This document shows positions 1 to 36,300 of a DNA stretch of 64,000 nucleotides, piece by piece. The number at the start of each line of letters is the position of its first letter. The first letter of the stretch is position 1. The DNA comes from Patescibacteria group bacterium UBA926 (GTDB lineage Bacteria; Patescibacteriota; Doudnabacteria; UBA920), in contig DBDS01000006.1 of the NCBI GenBank assembly GCA_002293685.1, positions 108,867 to 172,866 of the forward strand, in the 5' to 3' direction. The notes under the pieces were generated by a model. It saw nothing but the letters and a program-made list of their open reading frames with translations. It did not search any database and had not been told where the DNA came from. The position numbers and the translations under genes were made by a program.

Positions 1-743
1 TCTATAATTCAGATAATGCGGAACTAGTAAAACTTGTTCATGAATCAAATCTTGGTTCAATAAGTTTTGCGTTAGACACAGATTCAGATTTTACGGCAAC
101 AGAAATTCAAACAACTAATGACTACACAAAGTTTTTAGTTAAACGCCGTGGTGACTTTCCTTCGGAAGAATATAAGATTACAGCATTTGGCAGAATTAAT
201 GTTTACAATGCTCTGGGACCAATCGCTCTACTTCGGACACTAGGCTTCTCAATTGAACAGGTGCAAAGTGGTTTAGATAACTATGAAGGAATAAAAAGAC
301 GCTTTGAGTATATTGGTCAGCATAGTTCTGGAGCAAAAGTATTCGATGATTATGCACACCATCCAACTGCTGTTAAAGAAACTTTAGCAACAGCAAGGCT
401 TCGTTTCCCTGACAGCAAGATTTGGGCTATCTTCGAACCTCATACTTTCAGCAGAACTGAAGCAGTGATTAACGAAATTAGTGAATCATTTATTGACGCT
501 AATGAGGTTCTAATATCTGAGATATATCCTGCTAGAGAACGAAAAACAGAAACTAGCATAACAGGAGAAACTGTTGTTAAACATATCTCAAAACACACCC
601 CAAATGTTAAGCTCATTCAGAATAAAGAAGAAGCTTTGCAGATATTGAATGCTGAATTATCAAAAAATGATGTCGTCATTATTATGGCAGTTGGGGATTT
701 CAATACTTTGGCGCAAAAACTAACCAACACTTATGCAGCTTAA
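1..743 (+). CDS. murC: UDP-N-acetylmuramate--L-alanine ligase MurC, C-terminal part (5' end outside window)
   Basis: Open frame runs from the window edge in the same frame as ORF 261..743. DDYAHHPTAV Mur-ligase C-domain motif. Immediately followed by murB. Confidence 0.75.
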   Translation, partial: YNSDNAELVKLVHESNLGSISFALDTDSDFTATEIQTTNDYTKFLVKRRGDFPSEEYKITAFGRINVYNALGPIALLRTLGFSIEQVQSGLDNYEGIKRRFEYIGQHSSGAKVFDDYAHHPTAVKETLATARLRFPDSKIWAIFEPHTFSRTEAVINEISESFIDANEVLISEIYPARERKTETSITGETVVKHISKHTPNVKLIQNKEEALQILNAELSKNDVVIIMAVGDFNTLAQKLTNTYAA

Positions 744-1827
744 AAAGAATGCATTATTATCCCCATACACAACGTTCTATATCGGTGGGCCAAGCCGATA
801 TTTGATTTTCGGACAGGATGTCGGTGAACTTATTGAAGCTGTAGAATTTGCAAAGGATAAGAACTTACCTTTGTTAATTTTTGGTGGAGGCAGTAATTTA
901 TTAGTTTCAGATTCCGGATTCGATGGTGTCGCGATAAGATTAGAAAATATTGGGATGGATATTGTTAATGAGACAGATGAAGAAGTTCAGCTTTCTGTGG
1001 ATAGTGGAGAAGTTTGGGATGATGTAGTTCGATTCGCCTGTGAAGAAAAATGGTGGGGAATTGAAAATCTATCTCATATCCCAGGTTTTAGCGGAGCATT
1101 TTCTGTTCAGAATGTCGGTGCTTACGGGCAGGAAGCAAGTGGTGTAGTGGTGAGCGTAGAAGTTTATGATTTGCAAGATAATGTAATAAAGACTTTAAAT
1201 TACGATGAACTTAAGTTCGGCTATCGAAAAAGTATTTTTAACACAACTGAAAAGAATCGATATGTAATTCTCAGCACTACATTAAGACTCCAAAAGAATG
1301 GTGAGCCAAACTTAAGTTATGGAGACTTAGCTGATAGATTTAAAAATTTAACTCCGACCATTCAAGAAATTCGAGATGCAATAATCGAAATTCGAAATCA
1401 AAAGTTTCCATTCCCATCTGAACCAACAAAAGGAAATAGTGGTTCATTTTTCCGTGGACCGATTCTAAGTGATAAAGATTTCGAGCTAATGCAAATAAAG
1501 TTAAGCGAAACCTTAGGACATGATTCTTTGGAAAAATTGGAAAAGATGAAATCTAGACTCAAAGTTTCGCAAGGTTATAAAACACCCACAGCCTTTTTGA
1601 TTGAAAACTGTGTGGGAAAAGAGTTAGTCGTCGGTGGTGCAAAAATCAATCCAAATCAACCTGCCATCATCCTAAATTATTCAGGCCAAGCTACTTCAAC
1701 TGAAGTTTTATCATTATACAAGCAAGTTTCAAGTGCAGTTTTTGAACAGACTGGGGTTAGACTAGAAATAGAGCCTGAGTTAATTGGCTTTACTAAGGGG
1801 GAATTGGCCGAGTACGGAGTTTCCTAG
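733..1827 (+). CDS. murB: UDP-N-acetylenolpyruvoylglucosamine reductase MurB
   Basis: FAD-binding N-terminus (LSPYTTFYIGGPSRY...LLIFGGGSNLL) typical of MurB. Start overlaps the murC stop. Confidence 0.8.
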   Translation: MQLKKNALLSPYTTFYIGGPSRYLIFGQDVGELIEAVEFAKDKNLPLLIFGGGSNLLVSDSGFDGVAIRLENIGMDIVNETDEEVQLSVDSGEVWDDVVRFACEEKWWGIENLSHIPGFSGAFSVQNVGAYGQEASGVVVSVEVYDLQDNVIKTLNYDELKFGYRKSIFNTTEKNRYVILSTTLRLQKNGEPNLSYGDLADRFKNLTPTIQEIRDAIIEIRNQKFPFPSEPTKGNSGSFFRGPILSDKDFELMQIKLSETLGHDSLEKLEKMKSRLKVSQGYKTPTAFLIENCVGKELVVGGAKINPNQPAIILNYSGQATSTEVLSLYKQVSSAVFEQTGVRLEIEPELIGFTKGELAEYGVS

Positions 1828-1862
1828 ACCTCAAGTGCTATAATGAGTGTAGAAAGGAAAAT

Positions 1863-2207
1863 ATGAACATCAATATAAAAGCTACCAATACAACGTTAAC
1901 CCCGTCAATTAAAAGTAACGTCGAAAGCAAACTTTCTGTGATTGAAAAATTTACTCGCCCTGAAGATGTGATTTATGTAGAACTAGCTGAGGACACCCAT
2001 CACCAGAGCGGAATGTTCTTCAGAGTCGATATTCAGATTAGCCCACATGGAGTTTATGCAGATGCAAACGGTAATGATTTTTATGAAGCCTTAGATTTGG
2101 TTATTCCAAAAATTCAAACTCAGCTCACGAAAAGTAAAGATAAAAAAATCAGCCTTCGGAGAAGGCTGGGTAATGTGATTCGCGGTTTTAAGCGCAGTGA
2201 TGATTAA
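1863..2207 (+). CDS. hpf: ribosome hibernation promoting factor (RaiA/HPF family)
   Basis: 114 aa; MNINIKATN...TLTPSIKSNVE signature of the sigma-54 modulation/RaiA family. SD AAAGGAAAA upstream. Confidence 0.8.
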   Translation: MNINIKATNTTLTPSIKSNVESKLSVIEKFTRPEDVIYVELAEDTHHQSGMFFRVDIQISPHGVYADANGNDFYEALDLVIPKIQTQLTKSKDKKISLRRRLGNVIRGFKRSDD

Positions 2208-2488
2208 TGGAAGACACCTTTGCGGAAGAAAAATTGAATTCTGTCACGAATTTGTTCGCGAATTCCATCTTGATCTTCAAGAGTCTTGTTAATTTCGACT
2301 GGTAAAGTCGAGTACTCTAGGACATATCTCAAAGTTTCAGAGATATCTGTTCTATCTCTGGGTGGCAATCCTCCGAATATGGTCTTCGCTACAGTAGGTT
2401 CAAGGGCTACGAAAGCTGTGACTTTGCCAGATATGTCTGGTGCTTTCACAATTCTTTCACGGCATTTACTGATATCTTCAGATAACAT
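2204..2488 (-). CDS. hypothetical protein (~95 aa)
   Basis: Minus-strand ORF. Internal Met preceded by GGAGGAAAT SD chosen over the longer ORF-track start at 2551. No recognisable motif. Confidence 0.4.
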   Translation of the reverse strand: MLSEDISKCRERIVKAPDISGKVTAFVALEPTVAKTIFGGLPPRDRTDISETLRYVLEYSTLPVEINKTLEDQDGIREQIRDRIQFFFRKGVFH

Positions 2489-2569
2489 ATTTCCTCCAAA
2501 ATAAGTAATAGAATAGCTTGGCGAAAGCCAAGCTTTCCAGTATAATAGCACAGTATCTAAAATAAATCT

Positions 2570-5308
2570 ATGTCAATATTTAGTAAATTATTCAACTTCT
2601 CTTCTGGCGGTGGTTTGGGAAAATACCAATCAGAATTGGGTGTAATCAATGGCCTAGCAGAAGAAGTTTCTGCTTTATCCGATGACCAAATCCGCGCAGA
2701 AATTCAGGGTTTTAAAGATGAATTAAAATCCATTCAAGATGAGAGTAAGGTATTCAAGAAGTTAATAGAAATTCGTCCTCGCGTATTTGCACTAACTAGA
2801 GAAGCATCTAAACGAGCTCGTGGGCAATTTCATTACGACGTTCAAGTAATCGGCGGTTTGGTTTTATCGGAAGGACGTATTGCTGAGATGAAAACTGGTG
2901 AAGGTAAAACATTAACAGCAACTTTGCCGTTAGTCTTGTTTGCTTTGGCTGGACGTGGTACCCATTTGGTTACAGTTAATGATTACTTGGCTAGATGGCA
3001 GGCAAGCGACATGGGAAAGGTTTATGCTTTTCTTGGTTTATCTGTTGCAAGTATTCAACATGAAGCTTCGTTTCTATACGACGAATCCTATCAACCGGAG
3101 CAGGAAGAAATTGATGAAATCGAAGCGGGTACTCAGGGTTTAACTTTGGACGTGAAGCACATGAGACCGGTGCCAAGACAGGAAGCTTATCGAGCCGATA
3201 TCACATACGGAACAAACAATGAGTATGGATTTGATTATCTTCGCGATAATATGGTTCAAAGTGTGGATCAACTAAGACAACGCGATTTGTTTTATGCAAT
3301 TGTAGACGAAGTTGACAGCATTCTAATTGATGAAGCTCGGACTCCATTGATAATTTCCCAACCAGACTCTGAACCAACAGATAAGTATTATCAATTTTCT
3401 AAGATGGTAGACAAACTTCAAGATAAAGAAGATTATACTATTGATGAAAAACATAAAGCTGCCAGTTTGACTGATGACGGAATCACTAAAGTAGAAAAAA
3501 TTCTTAATGTCCAAAACATTTACGACACAAGCGCTGGTGTAACAACATTACATCATATTGAACAAGCTCTCCGTGCAAAAACTTTGTACAAGCGTGATCG
3601 CGATTACGTTATCCGTGATGGCGAAGTTGTCATTGTAGATGAATTCACAGGTCGGCTGATGTTTGGTCGACGTTACAGTCAAGGTTTACACCAAGCGATT
3701 GAAGCGAAAGAAAATGTAAAGATTCAACAAGAAAGTAAAACGTTAGCAACAATCACTTTCCAAAACTTATTCAGACTTTATTCCAGACTTTCTGGTATGA
3801 CCGGTACTGCTAAAACTGAAGAAGAAGAATTTTTCAAAATCTATCAGCTGGAAGTTACACAAATTCCTACCAATCAACCAATGGTTCGTATCGATCAATC
3901 CGATTTAGTATTTAAAAATGAACCAGGAAAATTTGCGGCAATTGCCAGAGATGTAAAAGAGCGTCATAAGAAAGGACAACCGGTTTTAATCGGTACAGTT
4001 AGTATTGCCAAAAATGAGTTGTTAGCAGAAGAACTCAAAAGAGCGGGCATTCCATTTGAAGTATTGAACGCTAAGAACCATGAACGTGAAGCGCAGATTA
4101 TCGCCCAAGCAGGAAGTTTTGGTGCAGTTACTGTTGCGACAAACATTGCTGGCCGTGGTGTAGATATTCTGCTCGGTGGAAATCCAGTTGATAAAGAAGA
4201 GGCTGAGCGCGTGCGTGAGGCCGGTGGATTAGCTGTAATCGGTACAGAACGTCATGAATCACGCCGCATCGACAATCAGCTACGTGGACGTTCCGGACGT
4301 CAGGGTGACCCAGGTTCAAGCCAATTTTACGTTTCCATGGAAGATGACTTGATGCGTTTGTTTGGTGGAGCTCGCATGCAAGGCATGATGGAAACTCTAA
4401 AGATTCCAGACGACCAACCAATCGAAGCGAAAATGATTTCGCGTTCAATTGAATCAGCTCAAAAGAAAATTGAAGGTCTTAACTTTGATACTCGTAAAAG
4501 TGTTCTTGAATTTGATGATGTCTTAAATCATCAACGTAAGAAAATTTATTCCCGTCGTCGCAAATATTTATCTGGAACTAAAGATCAGGAACCAATTAAA
4601 GGTGAGATTTTAGAATCACTTAAATCTAGACTTGCTGAAATTACTTCTGTTCATTTCGGGAACCTTGATTTCAAAGAAGCGTTAGAGCAAATTTCACTGG
4701 AAGCCAGTGCGATATTGCCAAATCTAACTGATGAAGTTAAAAATCAAATTTTTGAACGAACAACTTCCGCTGCAGACAGCGAGTTTGTAGTTTTAGATGA
4801 GCTTAATAAGTTGGCTGATGAAGCTATGGAGTCAAAGAGTAAAGAGATTGGTGAAGAGCTCTACGAAAATATTCTTCGTTCCATTACACTTCAAGCGATT
4901 GATAGACTTTGGATGGAACATTTGGACACTATGGACCACTTGCGTGACTCGGTTCGTTTGCGAGGTTACGGTATGCGTGACCCATTAGTTGAGTATAAAA
5001 AAGAAGGTCACTTATTATTCCAACGGCTGTTATCAGAAATCGATCAACAGATTTTAGGTGCTGCTTTAAGAATCGGTGTTGAAACTCATACGGACGACAA
5101 GGGTCAACAACACCATCATGCTACCATTAATATGACTGGTGGTTCAACCAACAATTCTGCACCTACAGCTGTAGCTGAGCAAAAAGATCCACGTGCGGGT
5201 GACATCGGCCGTAACGATCCGTGTTTCTGTGGTAGCGGTAAAAAGTATAAGAAGTGTGGCTTGCTGAATACGGCAGAACACATTAAAAACTTAGGAAAAA
5301 TCACATAA
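2570..5308 (+). CDS. secA: preprotein translocase ATPase SecA
   Basis: 912 aa. DEAD-motor motifs (MKTGEGKTL, DEVDSILIDEARTPLIIS). C-terminal zinc-binding tail CFCGSGKKYKKCG. The last ~16 codons lie inside or after the attL core and so are phage-supplied. Confidence 0.95.
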   Translation: MSIFSKLFNFSSGGGLGKYQSELGVINGLAEEVSALSDDQIRAEIQGFKDELKSIQDESKVFKKLIEIRPRVFALTREASKRARGQFHYDVQVIGGLVLSEGRIAEMKTGEGKTLTATLPLVLFALAGRGTHLVTVNDYLARWQASDMGKVYAFLGLSVASIQHEASFLYDESYQPEQEEIDEIEAGTQGLTLDVKHMRPVPRQEAYRADITYGTNNEYGFDYLRDNMVQSVDQLRQRDLFYAIVDEVDSILIDEARTPLIISQPDSEPTDKYYQFSKMVDKLQDKEDYTIDEKHKAASLTDDGITKVEKILNVQNIYDTSAGVTTLHHIEQALRAKTLYKRDRDYVIRDGEVVIVDEFTGRLMFGRRYSQGLHQAIEAKENVKIQQESKTLATITFQNLFRLYSRLSGMTGTAKTEEEEFFKIYQLEVTQIPTNQPMVRIDQSDLVFKNEPGKFAAIARDVKERHKKGQPVLIGTVSIAKNELLAEELKRAGIPFEVLNAKNHEREAQIIAQAGSFGAVTVATNIAGRGVDILLGGNPVDKEEAERVREAGGLAVIGTERHESRRIDNQLRGRSGRQGDPGSSQFYVSMEDDLMRLFGGARMQGMMETLKIPDDQPIEAKMISRSIESAQKKIEGLNFDTRKSVLEFDDVLNHQRKKIYSRRRKYLSGTKDQEPIKGEILESLKSRLAEITSVHFGNLDFKEALEQISLEASAILPNLTDEVKNQIFERTTSAADSEFVVLDELNKLADEAMESKSKEIGEELYENILRSITLQAIDRLWMEHLDTMDHLRDSVRLRGYGMRDPLVEYKKEGHLLFQRLLSEIDQQILGAALRIGVETHTDDKGQQHHHATINMTGGSTNNSAPTAVAEQKDPRAGDIGRNDPCFCGSGKKYKKCGLLNTAEHIKNLGKIT
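5239..5262. repeat. attL core (TAAAAAGTATAAgAAGTGtGGCTT) inside secA 3' end
   Basis: Matches 36449-36472 at 22 of 24 nt; identical 12-mer TAAAAAGTATAA. Confidence 0.75.
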
Positions 5309-8257: not shown

Positions 8258-9217
8258 ATGGGCGAAAAACTACTTATTCCAAATACAACCCAAATACCAA
8301 ACCTAATTTTAGACCATTTGCTGCCAGCGTTAGCGGAACCTGAAACCAAATGTATTTTGTATATTTGCCGCAGAACTTTTGGCTTTGGGAAAAGCAAAGA
8401 CCGCATTAGCCTTAGCCAATTTACGCGCGGAATTAAAACAAAGGACGGGCAAGTGCTAGACCATGGCACTGGGCTTAGCCGCCCAGCAGTAGTTTGGGCA
8501 TTACAGCGATTAGTGGCAGCGGGCGTTATTTACACTGAACAAACTACAAAAGGCAATTTTTTTGAGCTAAACCTGAATTTGAACATAGAGGCTGCGCTAA
8601 AAATCATTAGCGACATGCGCCTACAGCAGAACAAAGAGCGTAAGGAAAAGCCTAAACAGACCACCCTATTTAAAGTAGTTAACCGCGTTAACCAGTTAAC
8701 GCCGTTAACCAAAAGTGGTAAACGCGGTTTACCAAAAGTAGTTAACGAGGTTAACCCACAAAACCAAGAGAAACCAAGTAACAAAACCAAGACTATTGCA
8801 ACCGCTGACGCGGCTGCGACTGTGGATAAAAAACAGCATAAACCACACACAGAATTTATTGAGTTTTGGCATAACACGGTTAAGCAGACTAGAGGAATAA
8901 AGCCACTAATTGCACCTATGGACGGCAAGAACCTAAAGCGTGTGCTGGAAATGAACATACTGACACCCCTGCAATTACAGCAATTAGCTATTTATTTCCT
9001 AGCCCACGGTAGTTTTAAGAGTTTTAACCCCAGCATATCTGTACTGCTCAGTAACGGCATACTCAATGGACTTATGAACCGTATGCAGAATGACCCGAAC
9101 TTTTGGCGGGAACTTGATAGCTTTTCTACCCATTACTTACGGCAACCTAGCAAAAACAACCACGCCTTGGTCGGTAGGCTGGCAGAACTTAAAGCAAAGT
9201 TGTTTGTAATGAAGTAA
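8258..9217 (+). CDS. putative replication initiator / replisome organiser (winged-helix)
   Basis: ATG at 8258 just after the previous stop. SLSQFTRGIK...GLSRPAVVWALQRLVAAGVI resembles the wHTH of phage replication initiators. Early-region position. Confidence 0.4.
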   Translation: MGEKLLIPNTTQIPNLILDHLLPALAEPETKCILYICRRTFGFGKSKDRISLSQFTRGIKTKDGQVLDHGTGLSRPAVVWALQRLVAAGVIYTEQTTKGNFFELNLNLNIEAALKIISDMRLQQNKERKEKPKQTTLFKVVNRVNQLTPLTKSGKRGLPKVVNEVNPQNQEKPSNKTKTIATADAAATVDKKQHKPHTEFIEFWHNTVKQTRGIKPLIAPMDGKNLKRVLEMNILTPLQLQQLAIYFLAHGSFKSFNPSISVLLSNGILNGLMNRMQNDPNFWRELDSFSTHYLRQPSKNNHALVGRLAELKAKLFVMK

Positions 9218-14045: not shown

Positions 14046-14580
14046 ACACAATAAAACCCGTGAGCGCATTTTAATGGAACGGGTACGGGCAATTTTGGCG
14101 TTTAACCCGACATTTAGCGCACGGCAAATATCCGACCAGCTGGAAAATGACCACCGCGACCCAATAAAACTGACCCCACAGTACATAATAAAACTGCGCG
14201 ATAAAATCAAAGCCCAGCGAAAACACAACATTAGCATAATTGCCGTTGAACAGCGCATTGCCCAAATGCAGGACACGGCAGCTGCGGTGGTAGAAAAAAT
14301 GGTTGAAATACTGCTAAGCCCCAGCAGCTTAGACAAAGACCGAGTAGCAGCAGGAAAACTGATACTTGAGGCTGACCGCAACTTATTCCAAGCTGAAATG
14401 GACGCAGGGATATTTGAACGCAACCTTGGCAGCCTTGCCTTAAAACACAAACTGGTGCTAGACCCTGACCGTAGGCAGGCTATTAGCCGAGCCATGCAGA
14501 ACTTGGGCGTAATAAAACCAACAATTGATGTACAACCAACCCTTACCGACAGCCCTACAGGAAATAACGCAGCAAATTGA
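14038..14580 (+). CDS. putative terminase small subunit
   Basis: 180-aa HTH-like protein immediately upstream of and overlapping the large terminase. Assignment is positional. Confidence 0.4.
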   Translation: MPRHNKTRERILMERVRAILAFNPTFSARQISDQLENDHRDPIKLTPQYIIKLRDKIKAQRKHNISIIAVEQRIAQMQDTAAAVVEKMVEILLSPSSLDKDRVAAGKLILEADRNLFQAEMDAGIFERNLGSLALKHKLVLDPDRRQAISRAMQNLGVIKPTIDVQPTLTDSPTGNNAAN

Positions 14581-16021
14581 CGACATAGCCGCGTTAACCC
14601 CTGAGCAGCTAGCCAACTTGATTGACGACCCAGAGATTAGGGTTATAGCCAGCGAAAGTAGCTTTGCTGTTTTTATGGCTGCCTATTTAAGCCATTACTG
14701 GAACCTGCCAGCGGCAGATTTTCACACTGAACTTATTGCGTTGCTTGAGGACTGGAAACAGGAATTGCTGGCAATCACAGGGTTTAGAGGCAGCGGCAAA
14801 TCTAGTATTGTGGCGTTGGCTTTTGTGATGTGGTGCGCACTGTTTGAAAAGGCGCATTTTATTATATTGGTTAACGAAACCGACGAGGTAGGAAAACTTA
14901 GCATTGCCAACATTAGAGAGGAACTGCAAAGCAACCCGCTTATTGAGCATGATTTTGGCACAGTAATATCTAGCGAGCAGGTTAGCACCAAGTTTAGCGA
15001 AACCAATGTTTTGCTTGCTAACGGGGTGCGTATTATGGCACGCAGCCGTGGGCAAAAAATCCGTGGGTTGAGGCACCGCCAGTACCGCCCTGACTTGGTA
15101 ATAATTGACGACTGCGAGGAAATAGACAAAGTGCAGAGCAAGATTTACCGCGACAAAACCGAACGCTGGATTAGGGGCGTGGTTATTCCTGCCATTGAGG
15201 AACTAAAAGCCCGCCTGATTATCATAGGCAACGAGCTGCACCGCGACGCACTTATGGCACGCTTGCGCAAAAAAGACAAGCCTGACGCCATGGGGCATAT
15301 TTTTACTAACCGCAGTTACCCGCTGGTTGACGACAAAGGGCAATGCAACTGGGTGGGCAAATACCCTGACAAGGCAGCGTTAGACCGCCAGCTTGCTAAA
15401 GTGGGGCGCCTTATCTGGCTGCGTGAATACCTGCTTAAAGTAATACCTGAGGACGAGCAGATTGTTAAAGACCATGAGATACACCGCTACACCGAACTGC
15501 CGAACTACATTACCGTGGTTGCCAGCGGTGTTGACTTGGCTATTAGCCAAAAGCAGACTGCCGACTATACCACCATGGTGGCTGGTTTGGGCAGCGTGAT
15601 TGAGGGCAAGCCAAAAATTTATGTACTGCCAAAGCCTATAAATGCTAGGCTTGGTTTTGCTCAGACCATAAGTACCATGAAAGCGCAGCAGGACGCTTTG
15701 CGGGCTTACGGCATGGCTATGTTTTATGTTGAGGCTCAAAGTTACCAAAAGGCAGCTATTGAGGTAGGCGAAATGCACATGTTGCCAATTACCCCGATTA
15801 CCAGCGTGGCTGACAAGCGGGCAAAGCTCATGGCTATTGCCCCATTTATACAAAATGGTACTGTGCTATTCCCTGAGGCTGGCTGTGAGGAATTGGTAGA
15901 CCAAATACTAGAATTTGGCGTAGCCGAGCATGACGACTTGCTGGACGGCTTAGTTAACCTTATTTACGGGATACTGCAAAACGGGGGCGTGCAGTTGCCT
16001 GAGGTAGTGATATTAGGATAA
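14525..16021 (+). CDS. terL: terminase large subunit
   Basis: Walker A FRGSGKSS, Walker B LVIIDDCEE, C-terminal nuclease region with HDDLLD. 498 aa. Confidence 0.85.
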   Translation: MMYNQPLPTALQEITQQIDDIAALTPEQLANLIDDPEIRVIASESSFAVFMAAYLSHYWNLPAADFHTELIALLEDWKQELLAITGFRGSGKSSIVALAFVMWCALFEKAHFIILVNETDEVGKLSIANIREELQSNPLIEHDFGTVISSEQVSTKFSETNVLLANGVRIMARSRGQKIRGLRHRQYRPDLVIIDDCEEIDKVQSKIYRDKTERWIRGVVIPAIEELKARLIIIGNELHRDALMARLRKKDKPDAMGHIFTNRSYPLVDDKGQCNWVGKYPDKAALDRQLAKVGRLIWLREYLLKVIPEDEQIVKDHEIHRYTELPNYITVVASGVDLAISQKQTADYTTMVAGLGSVIEGKPKIYVLPKPINARLGFAQTISTMKAQQDALRAYGMAMFYVEAQSYQKAAIEVGEMHMLPITPITSVADKRAKLMAIAPFIQNGTVLFPEAGCEELVDQILEFGVAEHDDLLDGLVNLIYGILQNGGVQLPEVVILG

Positions 16022-16028
16022 AAACAAA

Positions 16029-16241
16029 ATGGAAAACAACATTACACCACAAACTAGGGTAATGCGCGAACTACCACCCGAATGGCAACACCTTATGCAG
16101 CTGGTTGAAAAACTTGGCTATGGGGAAATACAGATAATTGTTAAAAACAAAAAACCCCATGCTATTAAGAACCTTGCCCAAAATATAAACCTTACCGAGC
16201 CTGAGGACTTTAGGCGTGGGCTGGAAACGCACATTTTGTAG
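16029..16241 (+). CDS. hypothetical protein
   Basis: 70-aa ORF between terL and the intergenic promoter region. Confidence 0.35.
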   Translation: MENNITPQTRVMRELPPEWQHLMQLVEKLGYGEIQIIVKNKKPHAIKNLAQNINLTEPEDFRRGLETHIL

Positions 16242-16260
16242 TTATGCACACTTTATGATA

Positions 16261-16289
16261 TTGCAATGATTTAAAAATTATGATATAAT
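16261..16289 (+). promoter_or_regulatory. sigma-70-like promoter (TTGCAA-17-TATAAT)
   Basis: Near-consensus hexamers with 17-nt spacer. Overlapped by a 9-bp direct repeat TTATGATAT (x2). Confidence 0.5.
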
Positions 16290-16295
16290 GAATGT

Positions 16296-16427
16296 ACTGA
16301 GGTGTGGCTGGGCAACCAGCCTGCCTAAACAAACTTTTACAATACGGGTTAGTAGCCTAAATTGACGAACAATAGGGCTTACGCAAATTACTCTTTAACA
16401 GGGTAGTGGGCGTAAGCCCTTTTTTTA
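16296..16427 (+). ncRNA. candidate small structured RNA between terminase and portal
   Basis: Promoter, then a GNRA hairpin (GGCTGG-GCAA-CCAGCC), then an 11-bp stem AGGGCTTACGC/GCGTAAGCCCT followed by T7. Confidence 0.3.
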
Positions 16428-16448
16428 TTGCCTAAGCCCTGAAACTAA

Positions 16449-18647
16449 ATGAACATTTTAGACAAAGCCCTTGGGGTTGTTGGACTGCTGCGCAAGAGCG
16501 CCAGCTACACTACCAACTTAACCACAGACGCGTTGAGCGTTTGGCTGAATGAAACCAAAGTTAGCGATAGCCGCGCTTTGGGTGTTTTTAATAACTGGGT
16601 TTATGCCTGTATCAAAGCTATTGCTGAGGAAATAGGGCGAACTCAGTTTATTTTAATGGAAGTAAAAAGCGACGGGGATAGCGCCAAGGACGAACACCCG
16701 CTGCTTGATTTATTAGCTGCCGTTAATACGCGACAAACTGGCTTTGAACTTTTATACACCATTGCCTGCCATTTAGAGGCTACTGGAAATGCCTATATTG
16801 TGCTTGACGGCGTGGAAAGCGAGGGGCAAACCCCTACCGCATTACACCTGCTGCCGCCTGACCGCGTGAAAATGAACATTGGCGCACTAGGCGTTGAGGA
16901 ATATGTATTTAGCAACGGCAACAGCACTAAGACATTTTACCCATACCAAATTTTACATATTAAATACCCAAACCCACGCGACCAGTACAAGGGTATTGGA
17001 ACCGTGCAGGCTATTGCCGACTGGATAGACGCAGACAACTACGCAACCGAATTTAACCGCAAATTCTTTAAGAACGGCGCCCACATTGGCGGTTTTCTTA
17101 AGAGTGATAGCGCATGGACTGCTGAACAACTGGAATACTTACAAAAATCTTTTGAGGGGATTTACAAAGGGGTTGATAACGCATATAAGACAGCAGCCTT
17201 GCCAAAGGGTACTGAGTTTACCCCTGCCCAACAGAGCCAAAAAGAAATGGACTTTACCGAGGGGCAGAGGCTTACACGCGACAAAATCCTTGCTGGGTTT
17301 AGAGTACCGCACATTGTGCTGGGGCTTGGCGCAGGCGAAAGCCTGAACCGCGCTACTGCTGACGCCGCACACTATGTATTTATGAGCCGCACAATCAAAC
17401 CGAAAATGCAGCTTATTTGTGATTACCTTAATGAGTTTTTGGTGCCATTGTTTGGCGAAAACATTTACTTAACTTTTGTAGACCCTGTACCCGATAACCG
17501 CGAGGGCTTAATGGCTGAAATGACGGCAGCAGTTGGCGGGCAACCTGTAATGAGCGTGAACGAGGCACGCGAACGATACTTTAACGCACCGCCAATACAG
17601 AACGGCGACGCGGTAATGACCAGCTTTAGCACCATACCGCTTGGAAAGCCTGAGGAAAAGGCGCACGCCGCAAAGCAGAAAACTGGCGGCGGTAAACCTA
17701 CCCACAGAAAGACCAAGCACGCAAGGGCTGCCACCAAGCGCAAGGAAATTGCAGAGGAACTGGCGGCAAAGACCGCAGAGGTGCTGGAAAAGCACAAAGA
17801 AAAACTGGCAAAGATTGCCACCAAGAGCATTACCGACTTAAGCCATGAGGAATACGACGCATTACATAAAAACTTTGTGGTACGGGTTGAGCCTTACGCT
17901 AAATTACTGGGTGCCAAAGTACGCCAGCATAATGACAATGTTTTTGCCGAAATAGAGGAAAGCCTAGCCGAGATTGTAAAAGCAGAAAAGCAGCCGCAGC
18001 TGTTTGACTTGGAAAAAGCCAATGAGGCACTTAAAAAACTGGCTGCGCCAGTGCTGAATGACTTGTTTAACAAAGAGGCTAATGCAGCGGCAAACCTGCT
18101 GGACGGCAAGGCAGTTAAAGAGATTACGCCCTTTAAAAAATCAGACGACGACGAACTGGACGACTACCTAACCCCTGAGGCACGCAAGGCGCTTGAAAAG
18201 TTTTACGGGCTATTTGCTGACCACTATAACAAGACCACCGCATTGCTACTTAAAGACACCATTGCTGAGGGGCTTGCAGAGGGGGAAAGCCTAAGCCAGC
18301 TGGTAGACCGAGTAAGCACTATTAGAGGTTTTAGCGACGAGGCGCGGGCTGAACTGGTAGCAAGGACTGAGAGCTTTAGAATAGCGAACTTTGCGACCCG
18401 CGAAAGCTGGAACCAAAGCGGGGTAGTAAAAAGCCTGAAATGGTATACAGCCGACAGCGAGGCATGCGCATTTTGCGACGAACTGGACGGCAAAATTGTG
18501 GACATTGAAGAAAACTTTTTAGAGCTAGGCGACACTTTGACAGCCAATAACGGGCAGAGCCTTGACATTAGTTACGCAGATGTAAGCGGTGGCGCACTAC
18601 ACCCAAACTGCCGTTGCTACATACGCCCTGAGGAAATAGAAGTTTAA
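16449..18647 (+). CDS. portal protein fused to MuF/SPP1-gp7-like head morphogenesis domain
   Basis: 732 aa. N-terminal ~400 aa portal-like. Basic K/A-rich linker. C-terminus carries the MuF motif HPNCRCY. Confidence 0.7.
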   Translation: MNILDKALGVVGLLRKSASYTTNLTTDALSVWLNETKVSDSRALGVFNNWVYACIKAIAEEIGRTQFILMEVKSDGDSAKDEHPLLDLLAAVNTRQTGFELLYTIACHLEATGNAYIVLDGVESEGQTPTALHLLPPDRVKMNIGALGVEEYVFSNGNSTKTFYPYQILHIKYPNPRDQYKGIGTVQAIADWIDADNYATEFNRKFFKNGAHIGGFLKSDSAWTAEQLEYLQKSFEGIYKGVDNAYKTAALPKGTEFTPAQQSQKEMDFTEGQRLTRDKILAGFRVPHIVLGLGAGESLNRATADAAHYVFMSRTIKPKMQLICDYLNEFLVPLFGENIYLTFVDPVPDNREGLMAEMTAAVGGQPVMSVNEARERYFNAPPIQNGDAVMTSFSTIPLGKPEEKAHAAKQKTGGGKPTHRKTKHARAATKRKEIAEELAAKTAEVLEKHKEKLAKIATKSITDLSHEEYDALHKNFVVRVEPYAKLLGAKVRQHNDNVFAEIEESLAEIVKAEKQPQLFDLEKANEALKKLAAPVLNDLFNKEANAAANLLDGKAVKEITPFKKSDDDELDDYLTPEARKALEKFYGLFADHYNKTTALLLKDTIAEGLAEGESLSQLVDRVSTIRGFSDEARAELVARTESFRIANFATRESWNQSGVVKSLKWYTADSEACAFCDELDGKIVDIEENFLELGDTLTANNGQSLDISYADVSGGALHPNCRCYIRPEEIEV

Positions 18648-18669: not shown

Positions 18670-19944
18670 ATGGACAACCAACTAAAAAAACTGACAGCCG
18701 AAATAAAGGCTAAATTCCTTGAGGCGTTAGGCAAAAAGGAAGTGCAAGAGGCAATTGCTGAAACCAAGGCGGCAAAAGACACAGGAACCTTTGAAGTTGT
18801 GATTAGCACTGCTGACCGCGACAGACAGGGCGACATTATCATGCAGGACGGCTGGGTGCTTGATAACTACAAGAACAACCCAGTAGTGCTGTTTGGGCAT
18901 GATTATTGGTCATTGCCTATTGGCATTTGCGACGAAATTAAAGTTGTAGACGGCAAGCTGGTAGCCAAGGGGCGCTTTGCAAGCCACGATTTTGCGCAGG
19001 AAGTGCGCAAGCTGTACGACGCAGGAATGTTGCGAACTACCAGCGTTGGATTTATACCGCTTGAAACAGAGGGCAATGTGATTTTGCGTGCTGAACTATT
19101 GGAATTTTCCTTTGTACCAGTACCAGCTAACCCAATGGCATTGAGCCTAGCCCACGAAAAGCAAATCAATTTAGAGTTTGCTTTTGCCAAAGGCATTTTA
19201 GTTAAAGAGGATACACAGCCTGAACCAGTAGAACCGACAGAGCCAGCTGCTACTGAACCTGAGGCGCCTAAAGAGGAAACACCCACAGAACCTGAAACCC
19301 CAGTTACAGAGGAACCTGCTAGCGAGGCTACTACTGAGGAACCCACACCCCCAGCCGCCGCCGAGAACAACGGCGACGAACAACAGCCAACTGGCGGGGA
19401 TACAACTACCGAAACTAGCCCGCAGCCTGAGGCTACACAGCCTGAGGGCAGCGGCGAGGGTGCTGGTGAACCTACCGAACCTGAACAAAAGGCGGTAGAG
19501 GACGACGAACCGACAGACGGCACTGATGTTACGCAGCTACTAGAGAAAATGGGGCAAATGATTACAGCCCTAGCCGACTTGCATACGCAAGCGGTTGCAG
19601 CAACGGTTGATAAGGCATTAGGGGAAATTGCGCAAAAAGCGGGGCGCACCCTGAGCAAGCAGACCCGCGCATTACTTGAAACCACACTTGCCAAGATTAA
19701 AGAGAGTGGCACCGCCATTGAAAAGTTGCTTGAAACGGCAGACGCAAGCGACGACGGCGACGGGAAAGCAGCAGGCGAGGCTGCGACTACCGCTAACGAC
19801 GACTTACCGCAGGGCTTTGCAGAGGTCAAGAGTGCATTGCAACGGCACATTGAAACCCGCGAGGTGTTGCGCATGGTGGCTACGGCAGTAGGCAACTCTT
19901 TGGAAAAGTACAACAAAGAGATTAAAGAGCTACGCCAAAAGTAG
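18670..19944 (+). CDS. prohead protease (HK97/S78-like) with acidic linker and scaffold-like C-terminus
   Basis: N-terminus VISTADRDRQGDIIM...VVLFGHD resembles HK97 prohead protease. P/E/T-rich low-complexity region. Coiled-coil tail. Confidence 0.65.
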   Translation: MDNQLKKLTAEIKAKFLEALGKKEVQEAIAETKAAKDTGTFEVVISTADRDRQGDIIMQDGWVLDNYKNNPVVLFGHDYWSLPIGICDEIKVVDGKLVAKGRFASHDFAQEVRKLYDAGMLRTTSVGFIPLETEGNVILRAELLEFSFVPVPANPMALSLAHEKQINLEFAFAKGILVKEDTQPEPVEPTEPAATEPEAPKEETPTEPETPVTEEPASEATTEEPTPPAAAENNGDEQQPTGGDTTTETSPQPEATQPEGSGEGAGEPTEPEQKAVEDDEPTDGTDVTQLLEKMGQMITALADLHTQAVAATVDKALGEIAQKAGRTLSKQTRALLETTLAKIKESGTAIEKLLETADASDDGDGKAAGEAATTANDDLPQGFAEVKSALQRHIETREVLRMVATAVGNSLEKYNKEIKELRQK

Positions 19945-20014: not shown

Positions 20015-21208
20015 ATGGACGAGAAAATTTTGAAGGAATTGCAGCCAATGTTTGAGCAAGTTGTTGACCAAGTTATGGAAAAGCGACTTGGCGACGCTAT
20101 CAACCCTATGGTTGCAGCGGAAACCAAAAAGATTGTTGCCCAATTGAAAATGGAACGCAGCCTTTTTGGACAAGACCGCACTGGCTTATCTGACGAACAA
20201 AAGAAAGATTTTGTTAGCGCAGCTAAAGCCATTGTAATGGGCATGAATGTTGACACCAAGGCAAACGAAGCCTTGATTAGTGAACAGGACAGCCGCGGTG
20301 GTTACTTGGTAGCTACCGAAGTTGCAAACGCTATTGTACGCATTGCGGCTAGCGTTGGTGTAGTTATGAACCAAGCTACTAAGTGGACTATGAACACTGA
20401 CCAGCTTGATATTCCTGCTTACACTGGCAGCTTTTTAGAGGGCGAATACCTTGGCGTTGACGCCGCTGGTACTCCAACAGCTATTACCTTTGACAGCGCA
20501 AGCCTTGTTGCTAAAAAGTGGCAAGTTGCGTTTGTTGTAGGCAATGACTTGCTTGCAGACGCCAGCGTTGAATTAGCCGATTGGTTGCTGGCACTTGCTG
20601 GCGAGGCTTTGGCTAACCGCGTTGATAAAGAGGGCTTGGCTGGTGCAGGTACCCCATTTGTAGGTGTACTTAACCACCCTGATGTTACCGTACACACTTT
20701 TGCTACTGGTAACGACACCTTTGCTGAATTTACTTTAGACGAGGCTAGCGACATGATTGCTAACCTTGACGAAAGCATGCTTGACGGCGCTGCGTTTTAC
20801 ATGAACCGCACCGTTTGGGCAAAGGTACGCATGAAGAAAGACACTGCTGGCAACTATGTATTGCCTATGGCTGGCGCACCCAGCGCAGCATTGCTTGCTA
20901 ATTACGCTGGTAATGTTGGCGGTACCCGCCCAGTTGGGGAAATTCTAGGCTACCCAGTGTTTACTACCCGCCACTTGCCTGCTAACAGCGCTACTGCTGT
21001 AAGCACCAAGTTTGCCATTTTTGGCAACTTAAAGGCTTTGGCATACGGCGACCGCGGCGAAATGGCTATTGCCAAGCACACTAGCGGTAGCTTTGGTGGC
21101 AAGGAAATTGCTCTTGCTGACCAAGCTGGAATGGTGTTTAAGCACCGCCACGCTGTAACTGTAGCTTTGCCTGCCGCATTTGTGGTTGCAAAGACTGCTG
21201 CTAGCTAA
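20015..21208 (+). CDS. major capsid protein, HK97 fold
   Basis: 397 aa, immediately after the protease/scaffold. Gly/Ala-rich HK97-like composition. Confidence 0.75.
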   Translation: MDEKILKELQPMFEQVVDQVMEKRLGDAINPMVAAETKKIVAQLKMERSLFGQDRTGLSDEQKKDFVSAAKAIVMGMNVDTKANEALISEQDSRGGYLVATEVANAIVRIAASVGVVMNQATKWTMNTDQLDIPAYTGSFLEGEYLGVDAAGTPTAITFDSASLVAKKWQVAFVVGNDLLADASVELADWLLALAGEALANRVDKEGLAGAGTPFVGVLNHPDVTVHTFATGNDTFAEFTLDEASDMIANLDESMLDGAAFYMNRTVWAKVRMKKDTAGNYVLPMAGAPSAALLANYAGNVGGTRPVGEILGYPVFTTRHLPANSATAVSTKFAIFGNLKALAYGDRGEMAIAKHTSGSFGGKEIALADQAGMVFKHRHAVTVALPAAFVVAKTAAS

Positions 21209-36087: not shown

Positions 36088-36300
36088 ATGCTAAATAACA
36101 CAGAAATTACAAATAAAGGTGGGCGCCCCATGAACACTGAGGCAGTTAAGTTGGTAAAAACCCTAAAAGACGACAATAACCTTAGTTTTAGAGAGATACT
36201 AGAAGTTATGCAGAAAAGGCTACGCCGCAAGCTGGATATTAAGACCATTTACAGGTGGTACCATTACCGCCTACCAGCTGTGGATAAAACGAGGGGCTAA
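36088..36300 (+). CDS. small HTH-like protein (excisionase/regulator candidate)
   Basis: 70 aa, basic, near attR. Flanked by repeated TGTTGGCAAAA...TATACT motifs. Confidence 0.35.
   Translation: MLNNTEITNKGGRPMNTEAVKLVKTLKDDNNLSFREILEVMQKRLRRKLDIKTIYRWYHYRLPAVDKTRG

Follow-up and report, generated by a model that had tools for sequence, protein, structure and literature searches.

In phage lambda the constitutive promoter PR' is followed immediately by the terminator tR', and the late genes need Q antitermination (PMC7547250); in Stx phages, the by-product of PR'-tR' became the sRNA StxS (PMC7547250). Among mobile elements, HK022 put, EAR and canT of Tn916, a cis-acting antiterminator RNA (PMC11658703), are RNAs that let polymerase pass the terminators insulating element genes. 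Attenuators of the RAT/BglG/SacY/LicT type use a small imperfect hairpin with conserved purines in an internal loop, which overlaps the 5' arm of the terminator. The cassette described here, which lies in a prophage just before the head genes, shares features with all three groups. Like lambda PR'-tR'-Q, it has what looks to be a strong promoter, an efficient terminator within about 100-200 nt and late genes directly downstream. We have computed its anatomy, its conservation, the covariation of both of its competing helices, its placement before head genes and its portability. From these sequence comparisons we propose, with moderate confidence, that it is a self-contained control cassette for the head operon of Patescibacteria (CPR) phages and prophages, built around a conditional terminator. 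The logic, a conditional terminator close to a promoter and ahead of phage late genes, is classical, and the RNA family is new. The element is not described in the literature that we searched and is absent from Rfam 15. Its new features are the core motif, the unusually long terminator and an edge that resembles a DnaA box, and it has so far been found almost only in CPR phages. To our knowledge, gene regulation in CPR/Patescibacteria and their phages is almost entirely unexplored, and most of these organisms are uncultured.

The window, by which we mean the whole 64-kb stretch of DNA analysed, is bacterial chromosome: it encodes MurB, SecA, HPF, SecD/F, an M1 peptidase and LepA, and the database entries that its LepA and SecA match are labelled "Patescibacteria group bacterium" or Candidatus Doudnabacteria. 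A prophage spans approximately 5.4-36 kb of it. Early prophage genes encoding, in order, AAA_24, Rep_O, RusA and DUF5659 proteins precede the gene for TerL (14525-16021; phrog_38 match at 1e-64), and directly 3' of terL is a 70-aa ORF on the + strand (16029-16241) belonging to the DUF2292/YezD-like family of small proteins. The cassette begins right after the end of this ORF and occupies the 207-bp gap between it and a portal-MuF fusion gene (16449-18647, + strand; Pfam Phage_portal at 1e-60 and Phage_Mu_F, with a PHROG portal match), which in the model proposed below would be the first head gene to be gated. A head protease/scaffold gene (18670-19944; PHROG protease match) and the major capsid gene (20015-21208; PHROG major head protein match) follow, with adaptor, tail and tape-measure genes 3' of the capsid gene. 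The initial annotation had spoken of a terL-portal gap; the 207-bp gap before the portal gene is as it said, but its 5' neighbour is the 70-aa ORF rather than terL.

The 5' edge of the cassette is a 9-mer, TTATGCACA (16242-16250, + strand), that directly follows the stop codon of the 70-aa ORF and fits the DnaA-box consensus TTATNCACA. That consensus is not enriched in the window overall (6 copies, 3.05 expected). Across the family the 9-mer takes the form TTATCCACA, which usually starts 0-2 nt past the upstream stop codon; within the 170 nt 5' of the leader it is present exactly in 21 of 58 distinct loci and with one mismatch in 30 of them, and only three exact copies were found elsewhere in 442 kb of the same loci, so that the enrichment is very large. 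It occurs in either orientation (for example in L087 and L107), and its distance from the -35 element varies from 1 to 11 nt. The box may be regarded as a putative DnaA box, or instead as a site for a phage factor.

Next to the box lies a promoter of σ70 type (16261-16289, + strand), with a -35 element TTGCAA (16261-16266), a 17-nt spacer and a -10 element TATAAT (16284-16289), just as the initial annotation had read it. A TG at 16281-16282 makes the latter an extended -10 (TGaTATAAT); the promoter matches 10 of 12 consensus positions and ranks second among the promoter-like sites in the 10-24 kb interval. The start of transcription is predicted near a conserved GTA (16294-16296). A large share of the relatives have an equivalent promoter, often with an extended -10 and with the conserved GTA 3-8 nt further on; at the remaining related loci, automatic promoter calls were weak or inconsistent. 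Reading of the sequence likewise bears out a 9-bp direct repeat overlapping the promoter: the two + strand copies of TTATGATAT (16253-16261 and 16278-16286) bracket it, and there are no further copies in 64 kb, where 0.51 would be expected. The pair may be a candidate operator pair specific to this lineage, since the repeat is partly kept in L004 and absent from L005.

The conserved core of the cassette, which we read as an antiterminator (16354-16379, + strand), consists of two short helices, P2 and P3. In the window, AGCCU (16354-16358) pairs with GGGCU (16375-16379) to form P2, which encloses a loop of conserved purines, AA (16359-16360) on one side and A16374 on the other; within it, AUUG (16361-16364) pairs with CAAU (16370-16373) around the loop ACGAA to form P3. 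The consensus of the core over the family is RGYCYGA-NUNG-AAAAM-CNAN-A-GGRCU. Overlapping the core is a long hairpin of the intrinsic-terminator type (16374-16426, + strand), with an outer helix of 11 bp and an inner helix of 8 bp before a run of seven U. Its outer arms are AGGGCTTACGC (16374-16384) and GCGTAAGCCCT (16410-16420), the T7 run lies at 16420-16426 and the portal ATG is at 16449; the perfect 11-bp stem and T7 run of the initial annotation are thus real. The first five nucleotides of the 5' arm are also those used by P2. The isolated hairpin folds with 18 bp, and at -27.9 kcal/mol it is the most stable hairpin adjoining a T-run in the whole window, whose canonical short terminators have stems of 6-10 bp and energies of -11 to -14 kcal/mol. 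The layout, a GC-rich hairpin directly followed by a U-tract on the transcribed strand, is that of an intrinsic terminator and leads us to infer that the hairpin terminates transcription. It far exceeds the length that termination needs, a hint of a further or different role, for instance in RNase III processing or RNA stability.

The predicted leader RNA begins at the start site, ends with the T-run (16294-16426, + strand) and is approximately 130 nt long. RNA 16296-16428 has a folding energy of -52.6 kcal/mol (z = -5.9), a stability that none of 200 shuffled sequences reached. A cmscan of 15800-16900 against Rfam (Rfam 15) at E<=10 gave two matches at chance level only, of 10-12 bits against family thresholds of 50-113, and no tRNA or tmRNA was found by ARAGORN in the whole window. 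Near its 5' end the leader contains an accessory hairpin, P1 (16300-16326, + strand), whose core GGCTGG-GCAA-CCAGCC carries a GNRA tetraloop, GCAA; the initial annotation was right that a GNRA-capped hairpin exists, but its core lies at 16306-16321 and not at 16316-16331, a displacement of 10 nt. By eye, many relatives have a tetraloop-capped hairpin at the position of P1, and subfamilies with short leaders (L012, L016 and L046, for example) have none. Leaders differ in how far the core lies from the start site, from approximately 24 nt in the L012 type to 59 nt in the window; some thus have no space for a larger aptamer, and the core itself would have to be the sensor. A riboswitch was dropped as a candidate, since a core of this size is too small for one, the stretch before it is as short as 24 nt in some leaders, and no Rfam family was matched. 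Ribosome-mediated attenuation was dropped as well, no conserved leader ORF being seen by eye. Many members of the family have an A-rich, UUGAAAA-like sequence after the conserved GTA; the window has no UUGAAAA. In a few loci, by eye, the 5' UUGAAAA could pair with the U-tract and the start region, a pairing of A and U only that is absent in the window.

Relatives of the prophage are distant. Among GenBank phages there was no relative at the DNA level, and portal matches reached only about 26% identity. When IMG/VR and GTDB were searched with the single portal protein, only L001 was found, and it does not have the gap. A search with a portal profile was needed to reach the relatives; it yielded 80 metagenome loci and 22 loci from GTDB genomes, and loci were also fetched for portals with 100%, 81% and 55% identity. 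Identical loci of this phage are present in JGI 3300005689 and 3300013288. A large protein database held hundreds of portal homologues, and the few of these that carry a source name are from Patescibacteria. The GTDB loci belong mostly to Kaiserbacteria, Taylorbacteria, Saccharibacteria, Paceibacterota, Peribacteria and unclassified Patescibacteria, and related loci that carry an organism name are mostly from Patescibacteria genomes. The relatives at 81% and 55% both have the extended -10 promoter, a conserved block GCCTAAATnGACGAACnATAGGGCTT, the long hairpin and the T-run; their hairpin stem is identical or compensated, and the portal ATG lies 15-20 nt past the T-run. The cassette layout, with covariation, was found in approximately 80 related phage loci from other samples.

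In 58 distinct upstream regions, which were chosen for a run of at least five T within 50 nt of the ATG and in each of which the run follows a hairpin, the hairpins have 11-26 bp (median 19), a span of 46 nt and a mean energy of -28.7 kcal/mol. The T-runs are 5-8 nt long (median 6) and end 0-44 nt (median 9.5) before the portal ATG. Since the U-run abuts the ATG, there is no room for another promoter, and expression of the head genes requires read-through.

A covariance model of the element, R1, matches the window at 16341-16425 with 67.6 bits as a single copy on the + strand; the only other match in the window is the same palindromic hairpin read on the opposite strand. Of the first 100 portal-related loci, 71 have one copy each on the + strand (64 distinct sequences), and over the 760 kb of these loci R1 never found a second copy in a locus. 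The match ends 0-44 nt (median 10.5) 5' of the portal ATG, with the exception of a weak match of 25.9 bits that lies 141 nt upstream. Scans of IMG/VR with DNA patterns returned many ordinary terminators; the covariance model rejected these and added further members. Where portals are less than 40% identical, almost all loci are without the element, including those assigned to Acidobacteriota. A few relatives with portal identity of at least 40%, such as L001 and L034, also lack the cassette, which must therefore be dispensable.

The initial annotation had suggested that fold and covariation be compared with homologous phages, and that comparison favours a conserved RNA: the unit is present in approximately 80 loci and its structure covaries. 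In a MAFFT alignment of 50 distinct elements (A3), P3 (4 bp) and the outer 10 bp of the terminator taken together are 92.1% paired, with 175 cells in which both sides have changed and a covariation score of 0.689, compared with 0.242 for shuffled alignments (none of 500 reached the observed score). Sliding the 3' partner by 1-3 columns lowers pairing to 45% or less. Taken separately, the outer 10 bp of the terminator are 91.4% paired, with changes on both sides in nine of the ten pairs, and all four pairs of P3 have changed on both sides. RNAalifold, run unguided, recovered the same helices with compensatory changes in 14 of 15 pairs. P2 and P3 together behave in the same manner, with 92.0% pairing and a covariation score of 0.626; shuffled alignments gave 0.276, none of 500 reaching the observed value, and at most 47% remained paired after sliding by 1-3 columns. 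For P2 by itself (alignment columns 19-23 with 42-46) the paired fraction is 90.4%; its changes include compensatory ones, and it reuses nucleotides of the terminator base. Frequent G-U pairs indicate that the constraint acts on the + strand RNA.

Across the family, P2 is formed by GYCY, 5' of P3, and RGRC, the first nucleotides of the terminator 5' arm. Because its 3' strand is the base of that arm, P2 and the complete terminator are mutually exclusive. Columns 21, 44 and 100 change together, from C-G-C to U-A-U, so that one strand retains a choice of two partners, the hallmark of an antiterminator-terminator pair. A conserved alternative helix thus sequesters part of the terminator stem, as in an attenuator. 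P2 is short, with 3-8 contiguous pairs. Folded as an isolated segment, P2 and P3 give -6.7 kcal/mol in the window and a mean of -10.1 kcal/mol over 42 sequences, and in eight examples, the window among them, the P2-P3 hairpin is the minimum-energy fold of the segment. The terminator, at a mean of -29.9 kcal/mol, is far more stable than the antiterminator at -10.1, and this gap means that P2 can prevail only kinetically or with a bound factor. Action of the core without a factor is unlikely to make sense, since a terminator directly behind an antiterminator that is always on would be purposeless. The likeness of the P2 5' strand to the terminator 3' arm could instead reflect a repeated word for protein binding.

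Three loci show the cassette in other surroundings. In L111 a second and weaker copy (31.6 bits), with its own promoter TTGCAT-17-TATAAT, precedes the head protease gene after an insertion of three genes 3' of the portal gene. The order in L119 is integrase, a 105-aa ORF, TAA, TTATCCACA, extended -10, leader, terminator, head protease and capsid, with neither portal nor terminase upstream of the cassette. In L121 the cassette is flanked by TerL and portal genes of other families, the TerL belonging to phrog_675 and the portal giving a weak phrog_156 match. The cassette travels whole, with box, promoter, leader and terminator, and always stands before head-morphogenesis genes.

These findings suggest the following mechanism. 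A strong promoter of the σ70 type, often behind the DnaA-box-like 9-mer, would start a leader of about 100-130 nt, and the very stable terminator would stop polymerase a few nucleotides from the portal start codon, so that expression of portal, protease and capsid would need polymerase to pass it. By default the terminator would be expected to win (about -30 against -10 kcal/mol), the short RNA would be released and the head genes would stay off, as a lysogen requires; during lytic growth, a trans-acting factor would permit read-through. P2 would sequester the bottom five base pairs of the terminator, beside the U-tract. It is on the bottom pairs of the stem, next to the U-tract, that termination depends. 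Head genes are the genes whose products are needed in the largest amounts. We infer that read-through is regulated: with a promoter, and a near-perfect terminator about 100 nt on that abuts the ATG, read-through would have to be controlled, or the head genes would be left without a usable promoter. An attenuator gating late-gene read-through, one of several readings put forward in the initial annotation, is accordingly the one best supported by the closeness of the U-run to the ATG, the covarying antiterminator and the re-use of the cassette. The discrete RNA of approximately 130 nt that it also predicted is plausible, probably as a terminated by-product rather than as the purpose of the unit. 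As in the case of lambda PR'-6S and StxS, a short RNA would be the default product, and it might have gained functions of its own as StxS did.

The factor is most likely a phage protein that would bind P2-P3 at the GA/A purine loop in the manner of RAT and BglG; alternatively, polymerase might be modified at the promoter in the manner of lambda Q. A fuller version of the first idea, in which a phage or host factor reading P2-P3 at its GA/A loop opens the long terminator while the promoter is coupled to the DnaA box, would tie the head genes to an RNA-binding antiterminator and to the status of the host replication initiator; we regard this combination as tentative and rather doubtful. Among approximately 20 early-region proteins there was no match to Q, N, PRD/CAT, ANTAR or NusG-like antiterminators. 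This search, in which Pfam was run on 20 proteins (5.6-14.6 kb) and PHROGs on 11 of these plus a 180-aa ORF, is one that distant homologues could escape, and the early-gene matches that it gave were to AAA_24, Rep_O, RusA, DUF5659 and DUF7307 only. The DUF2292-like 70-aa protein, whose gene is syntenic, is a weak candidate for the partner. Pfam DUF2292 is matched by 11 of 29 homologues of the ORF (best E-value 1e-6), and a DUF2292-like ORF precedes the cassette also in L121 (hhalign 90.9%). At loci with inserted genes, however, it stays with terL and the cassette with the portal gene, and L034 has the protein and no cassette. The protein's AlphaFold models are poor (pLDDT 59-64), its best Foldseek match among PDB entries had an E of 1.3, and a sequence search of the PDB found no relative.

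Set against the known systems, the cassette departs from each at particular points. The box TTATCCACA could, as a DNA motif adjacent to a promoter, be a loading site like that of the lambda Q system, but its spacing from the promoter is variable (1-11 nt) and it is found in both orientations, and no Q homologue was found in the early-region proteins scanned. Q systems need no leader structure, whereas the leader here has a conserved, covarying structure that overlaps the terminator; the cassette also adjoins terminase and portal genes rather than lysis genes, and its host is a CPR bacterium. The antiterminator resembles RAT in being much weaker than the terminator, so that a bound factor is needed, but in sequence the two are not similar, the part of the prophage that was scanned yielded no CAT/PRD protein, and phage head genes take the place of sugar operons. 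The core GYCYGA...AGGRC also resembles lambda boxB (GCCCUGAAAAAGGGC), a likeness that we take to be one of letters only, and a large hairpin stands between recognition element and start codon, presumably as in the lambda N leader. Lambda N and nut differ from the cassette in several ways: here a 4-bp hairpin stands in for most of the boxB loop, boxA is missing, no N-like protein was found among the early-region proteins scanned, and the terminator that would be suppressed overlaps the element, whereas the action of N is processive and reaches terminators at a distance. The put, canT and EAR RNAs likewise act processively on downstream terminators without overlap, and no Rfam match links them to the element.

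In practical terms, the cassette, being short, highly recognisable and strictly placed, can mark where the head module begins in a large clade of CPR phages. It also offers a concrete regulatory RNA and a handle for its partner factor, perhaps an antiterminator of a new type. The conserved DnaA-box consensus at its edge suggests that phage late transcription may be linked, unexpectedly, to the control of host replication. Were the terminated RNA to be abundant in lysogens, an action on the host like that of StxS in Stx phages would be possible.

Other explanations of the same features deserve consideration. The cassette might be an unregulated, leaky terminator or insulator combined with a structural 5'-UTR, in which a fixed level of read-through sets the ratio of packaging to head proteins and no trans factor is involved; the hairpin would then end transcripts of terminase and cargo genes, the stem would be a site for RNase III or stability, and the U-tract would be a landing site for ribosomes. 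Several observations fit this well: stems with a median of 19 bp have the length of a dsRNA substrate, beyond the need of termination, the U-tract abuts the ATG in a genome where use of Shine-Dalgarno sequences is weak (18 of 77 genes), cargo genes are often inserted just 5' of the cassette, and no antiterminator protein was found among the early-region proteins. We nevertheless think it unlikely, because it leaves unexplained both the strong upstream promoter, which is conserved and is duplicated together with the terminator, and the covariation of the competing P2 with the terminator base; nor would leakage be expected of a GC-rich, near-perfect stem of 11-26 bp with U5-8 behind it. Less probable still is an independent gene for a trans-acting sRNA, in which the RNA of about 100-130 nt is itself the product, regulating host or phage mRNAs in the lysogen, for example, and adjacency to the portal gene is incidental. 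A strong promoter of its own, a terminator and a stable fold would suit such a gene, the A-rich 5' motifs such as UUGAAAA that are common to many members could serve as a seed, and StxS, which arose from the PR'-tR' by-product in Stx phages, is a precedent (PMC7547250). Yet the placement is fixed at 0-44 nt before the ATG of a head gene in approximately 80 loci, the single-stranded 5' region is not conserved across the family while the switch core is, and the head genes would be left without a promoter of their own.

The initial annotation had also offered a pac or cos site recognised by terminase, and here the RNA-type covariation, together with the loci L111 and L119, contradicts it. Closeness to terL and local direct repeats in the window would be in keeping with such a packaging site. 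However, the stems diverge while their pairing is kept, including by G-U pairs, which the opposite strand would turn into A-C mismatches, and the T-run is always on the coding strand. Moreover, L111 has two copies, the L119 copy has no terminase nearby, the cassette is also found with the unrelated TerL family of L121, and the repeats of the window are not conserved in relatives, so that we consider a packaging site highly improbable. A mimic of a CRISPR repeat, or RNA anti-CRISPR, was dropped as a candidate because the sequence of the stem is not conserved.

The repeats themselves, that is, the 9-bp repeat at the promoter and a near-copy of the terminator 3' arm, are both present in the window as the initial annotation had noted, but they are lineage-specific and weak or absent in the relatives at 81% and 55%. 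The near-copy, GCCTAAGCCCT (16430-16440, + strand), follows the T-run, as had been described, and was recovered in a search for direct and inverted repeats. It is not conserved, being absent from L004 and L005. In the window it could pair with the 5' arm in place of the 3' arm (13 nt, 92% complementary), and the hairpin so formed would be one without a U-tract.

The 5' edge of the cassette, directly after the upstream stop codon, carries a DnaA-box consensus 9-mer (TTATGCACA at 16242-16250 in the window; the consensus box is TTATCCACA). An exact TTATCCACA was seen at the cassette edge in 21 of the 58 distinct related loci scanned upstream of the leader, for example L015, L027 and L119 (L119:1238-1246), and only 3 copies were seen in 442 kb elsewhere in those loci. 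Both orientations of the box are found across the related loci, and its distances to the -35 element form two groups, of about 1-3 nt and about 8-11 nt. We consider the 9-mer a candidate site that is recognised either by host DnaA or by a phage factor of the same specificity. Other boxes are present in the window. One exact TTATCCACA lies on the minus strand within the Rep_O-like gene (8821-8829), where it may mark the phage origin, and another, also on the minus strand, lies near the prophage right end (36279-36287). In the host region, a TrwB/TraG-like gene contains four further boxes, exact or with one mismatch, between 45022 and 45349, three of them inside approximately 210 bp.

The site upstream of the cassette may also be a hotspot for cargo insertions. 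Unrelated cargo ORFs lie directly upstream of the cassette in L010, L018, L025, L027 and L066 (for example 385 amino acids in L018 and 282 in L027), and, judged by eye from their sequences, these have the hydrophobic look of membrane proteins. A small DUF2292/YezD-like gene lies directly 3' of terL in most of these phages; because this gene was detected further upstream than the cargo ORF in L018 and L027, the cargo in these two loci is inserted between it and the cassette. We suggest that the terminator would insulate such insertions from the head genes. The DUF2292/YezD-like proteins (window 16029-16241 and its homologues) have 60-75 amino acids and the motif PEW...GEIxIKIQDGKP...DDF, and structure modelling gave no confident model for them. 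In L121, a gene of this family also follows a TerL of an unrelated family.

Two cassette copies were seen in a single phage, L111 (601-688 and 6622-6701, both on the minus strand). The second sits after a three-gene insertion behind the portal gene, encoding proteins of 276, 166 and 665 amino acids, of which the 166-amino-acid protein alone matched a PHROG family, one without known function. The second cassette would restart control of the protease and capsid genes after the insertion. L119 (IMGVR_UViG_3300050014_001187, 26-3943) has a compact layout in which an integrase gene and a 105-amino-acid ORF precede the cassette, and the head protease and major capsid genes follow it; neither a portal nor a terminase gene lies upstream on this contig of only 4 kb. 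L119 may represent a satellite-like element or the end of a prophage.

Downstream of the T-run in the window, a near-copy of the terminator 3' arm (16428-16440) is 92% complementary to the 5' arm (16374-16386) over 13 nt. In read-through transcripts, pairing between these two segments could give a hairpin that lacks a U-tract and lies 9 nt from the portal AUG. The near-copy is absent from both relatives compared (the 81% and 55% relatives). Among all window genes, a Shine-Dalgarno-like motif was recognisable before only 18 of the 77 ORFs; the upstream sequences of several phage genes instead have ATTAAGGCATAAACCA in common, for example before 11310, 24810 and 35491.
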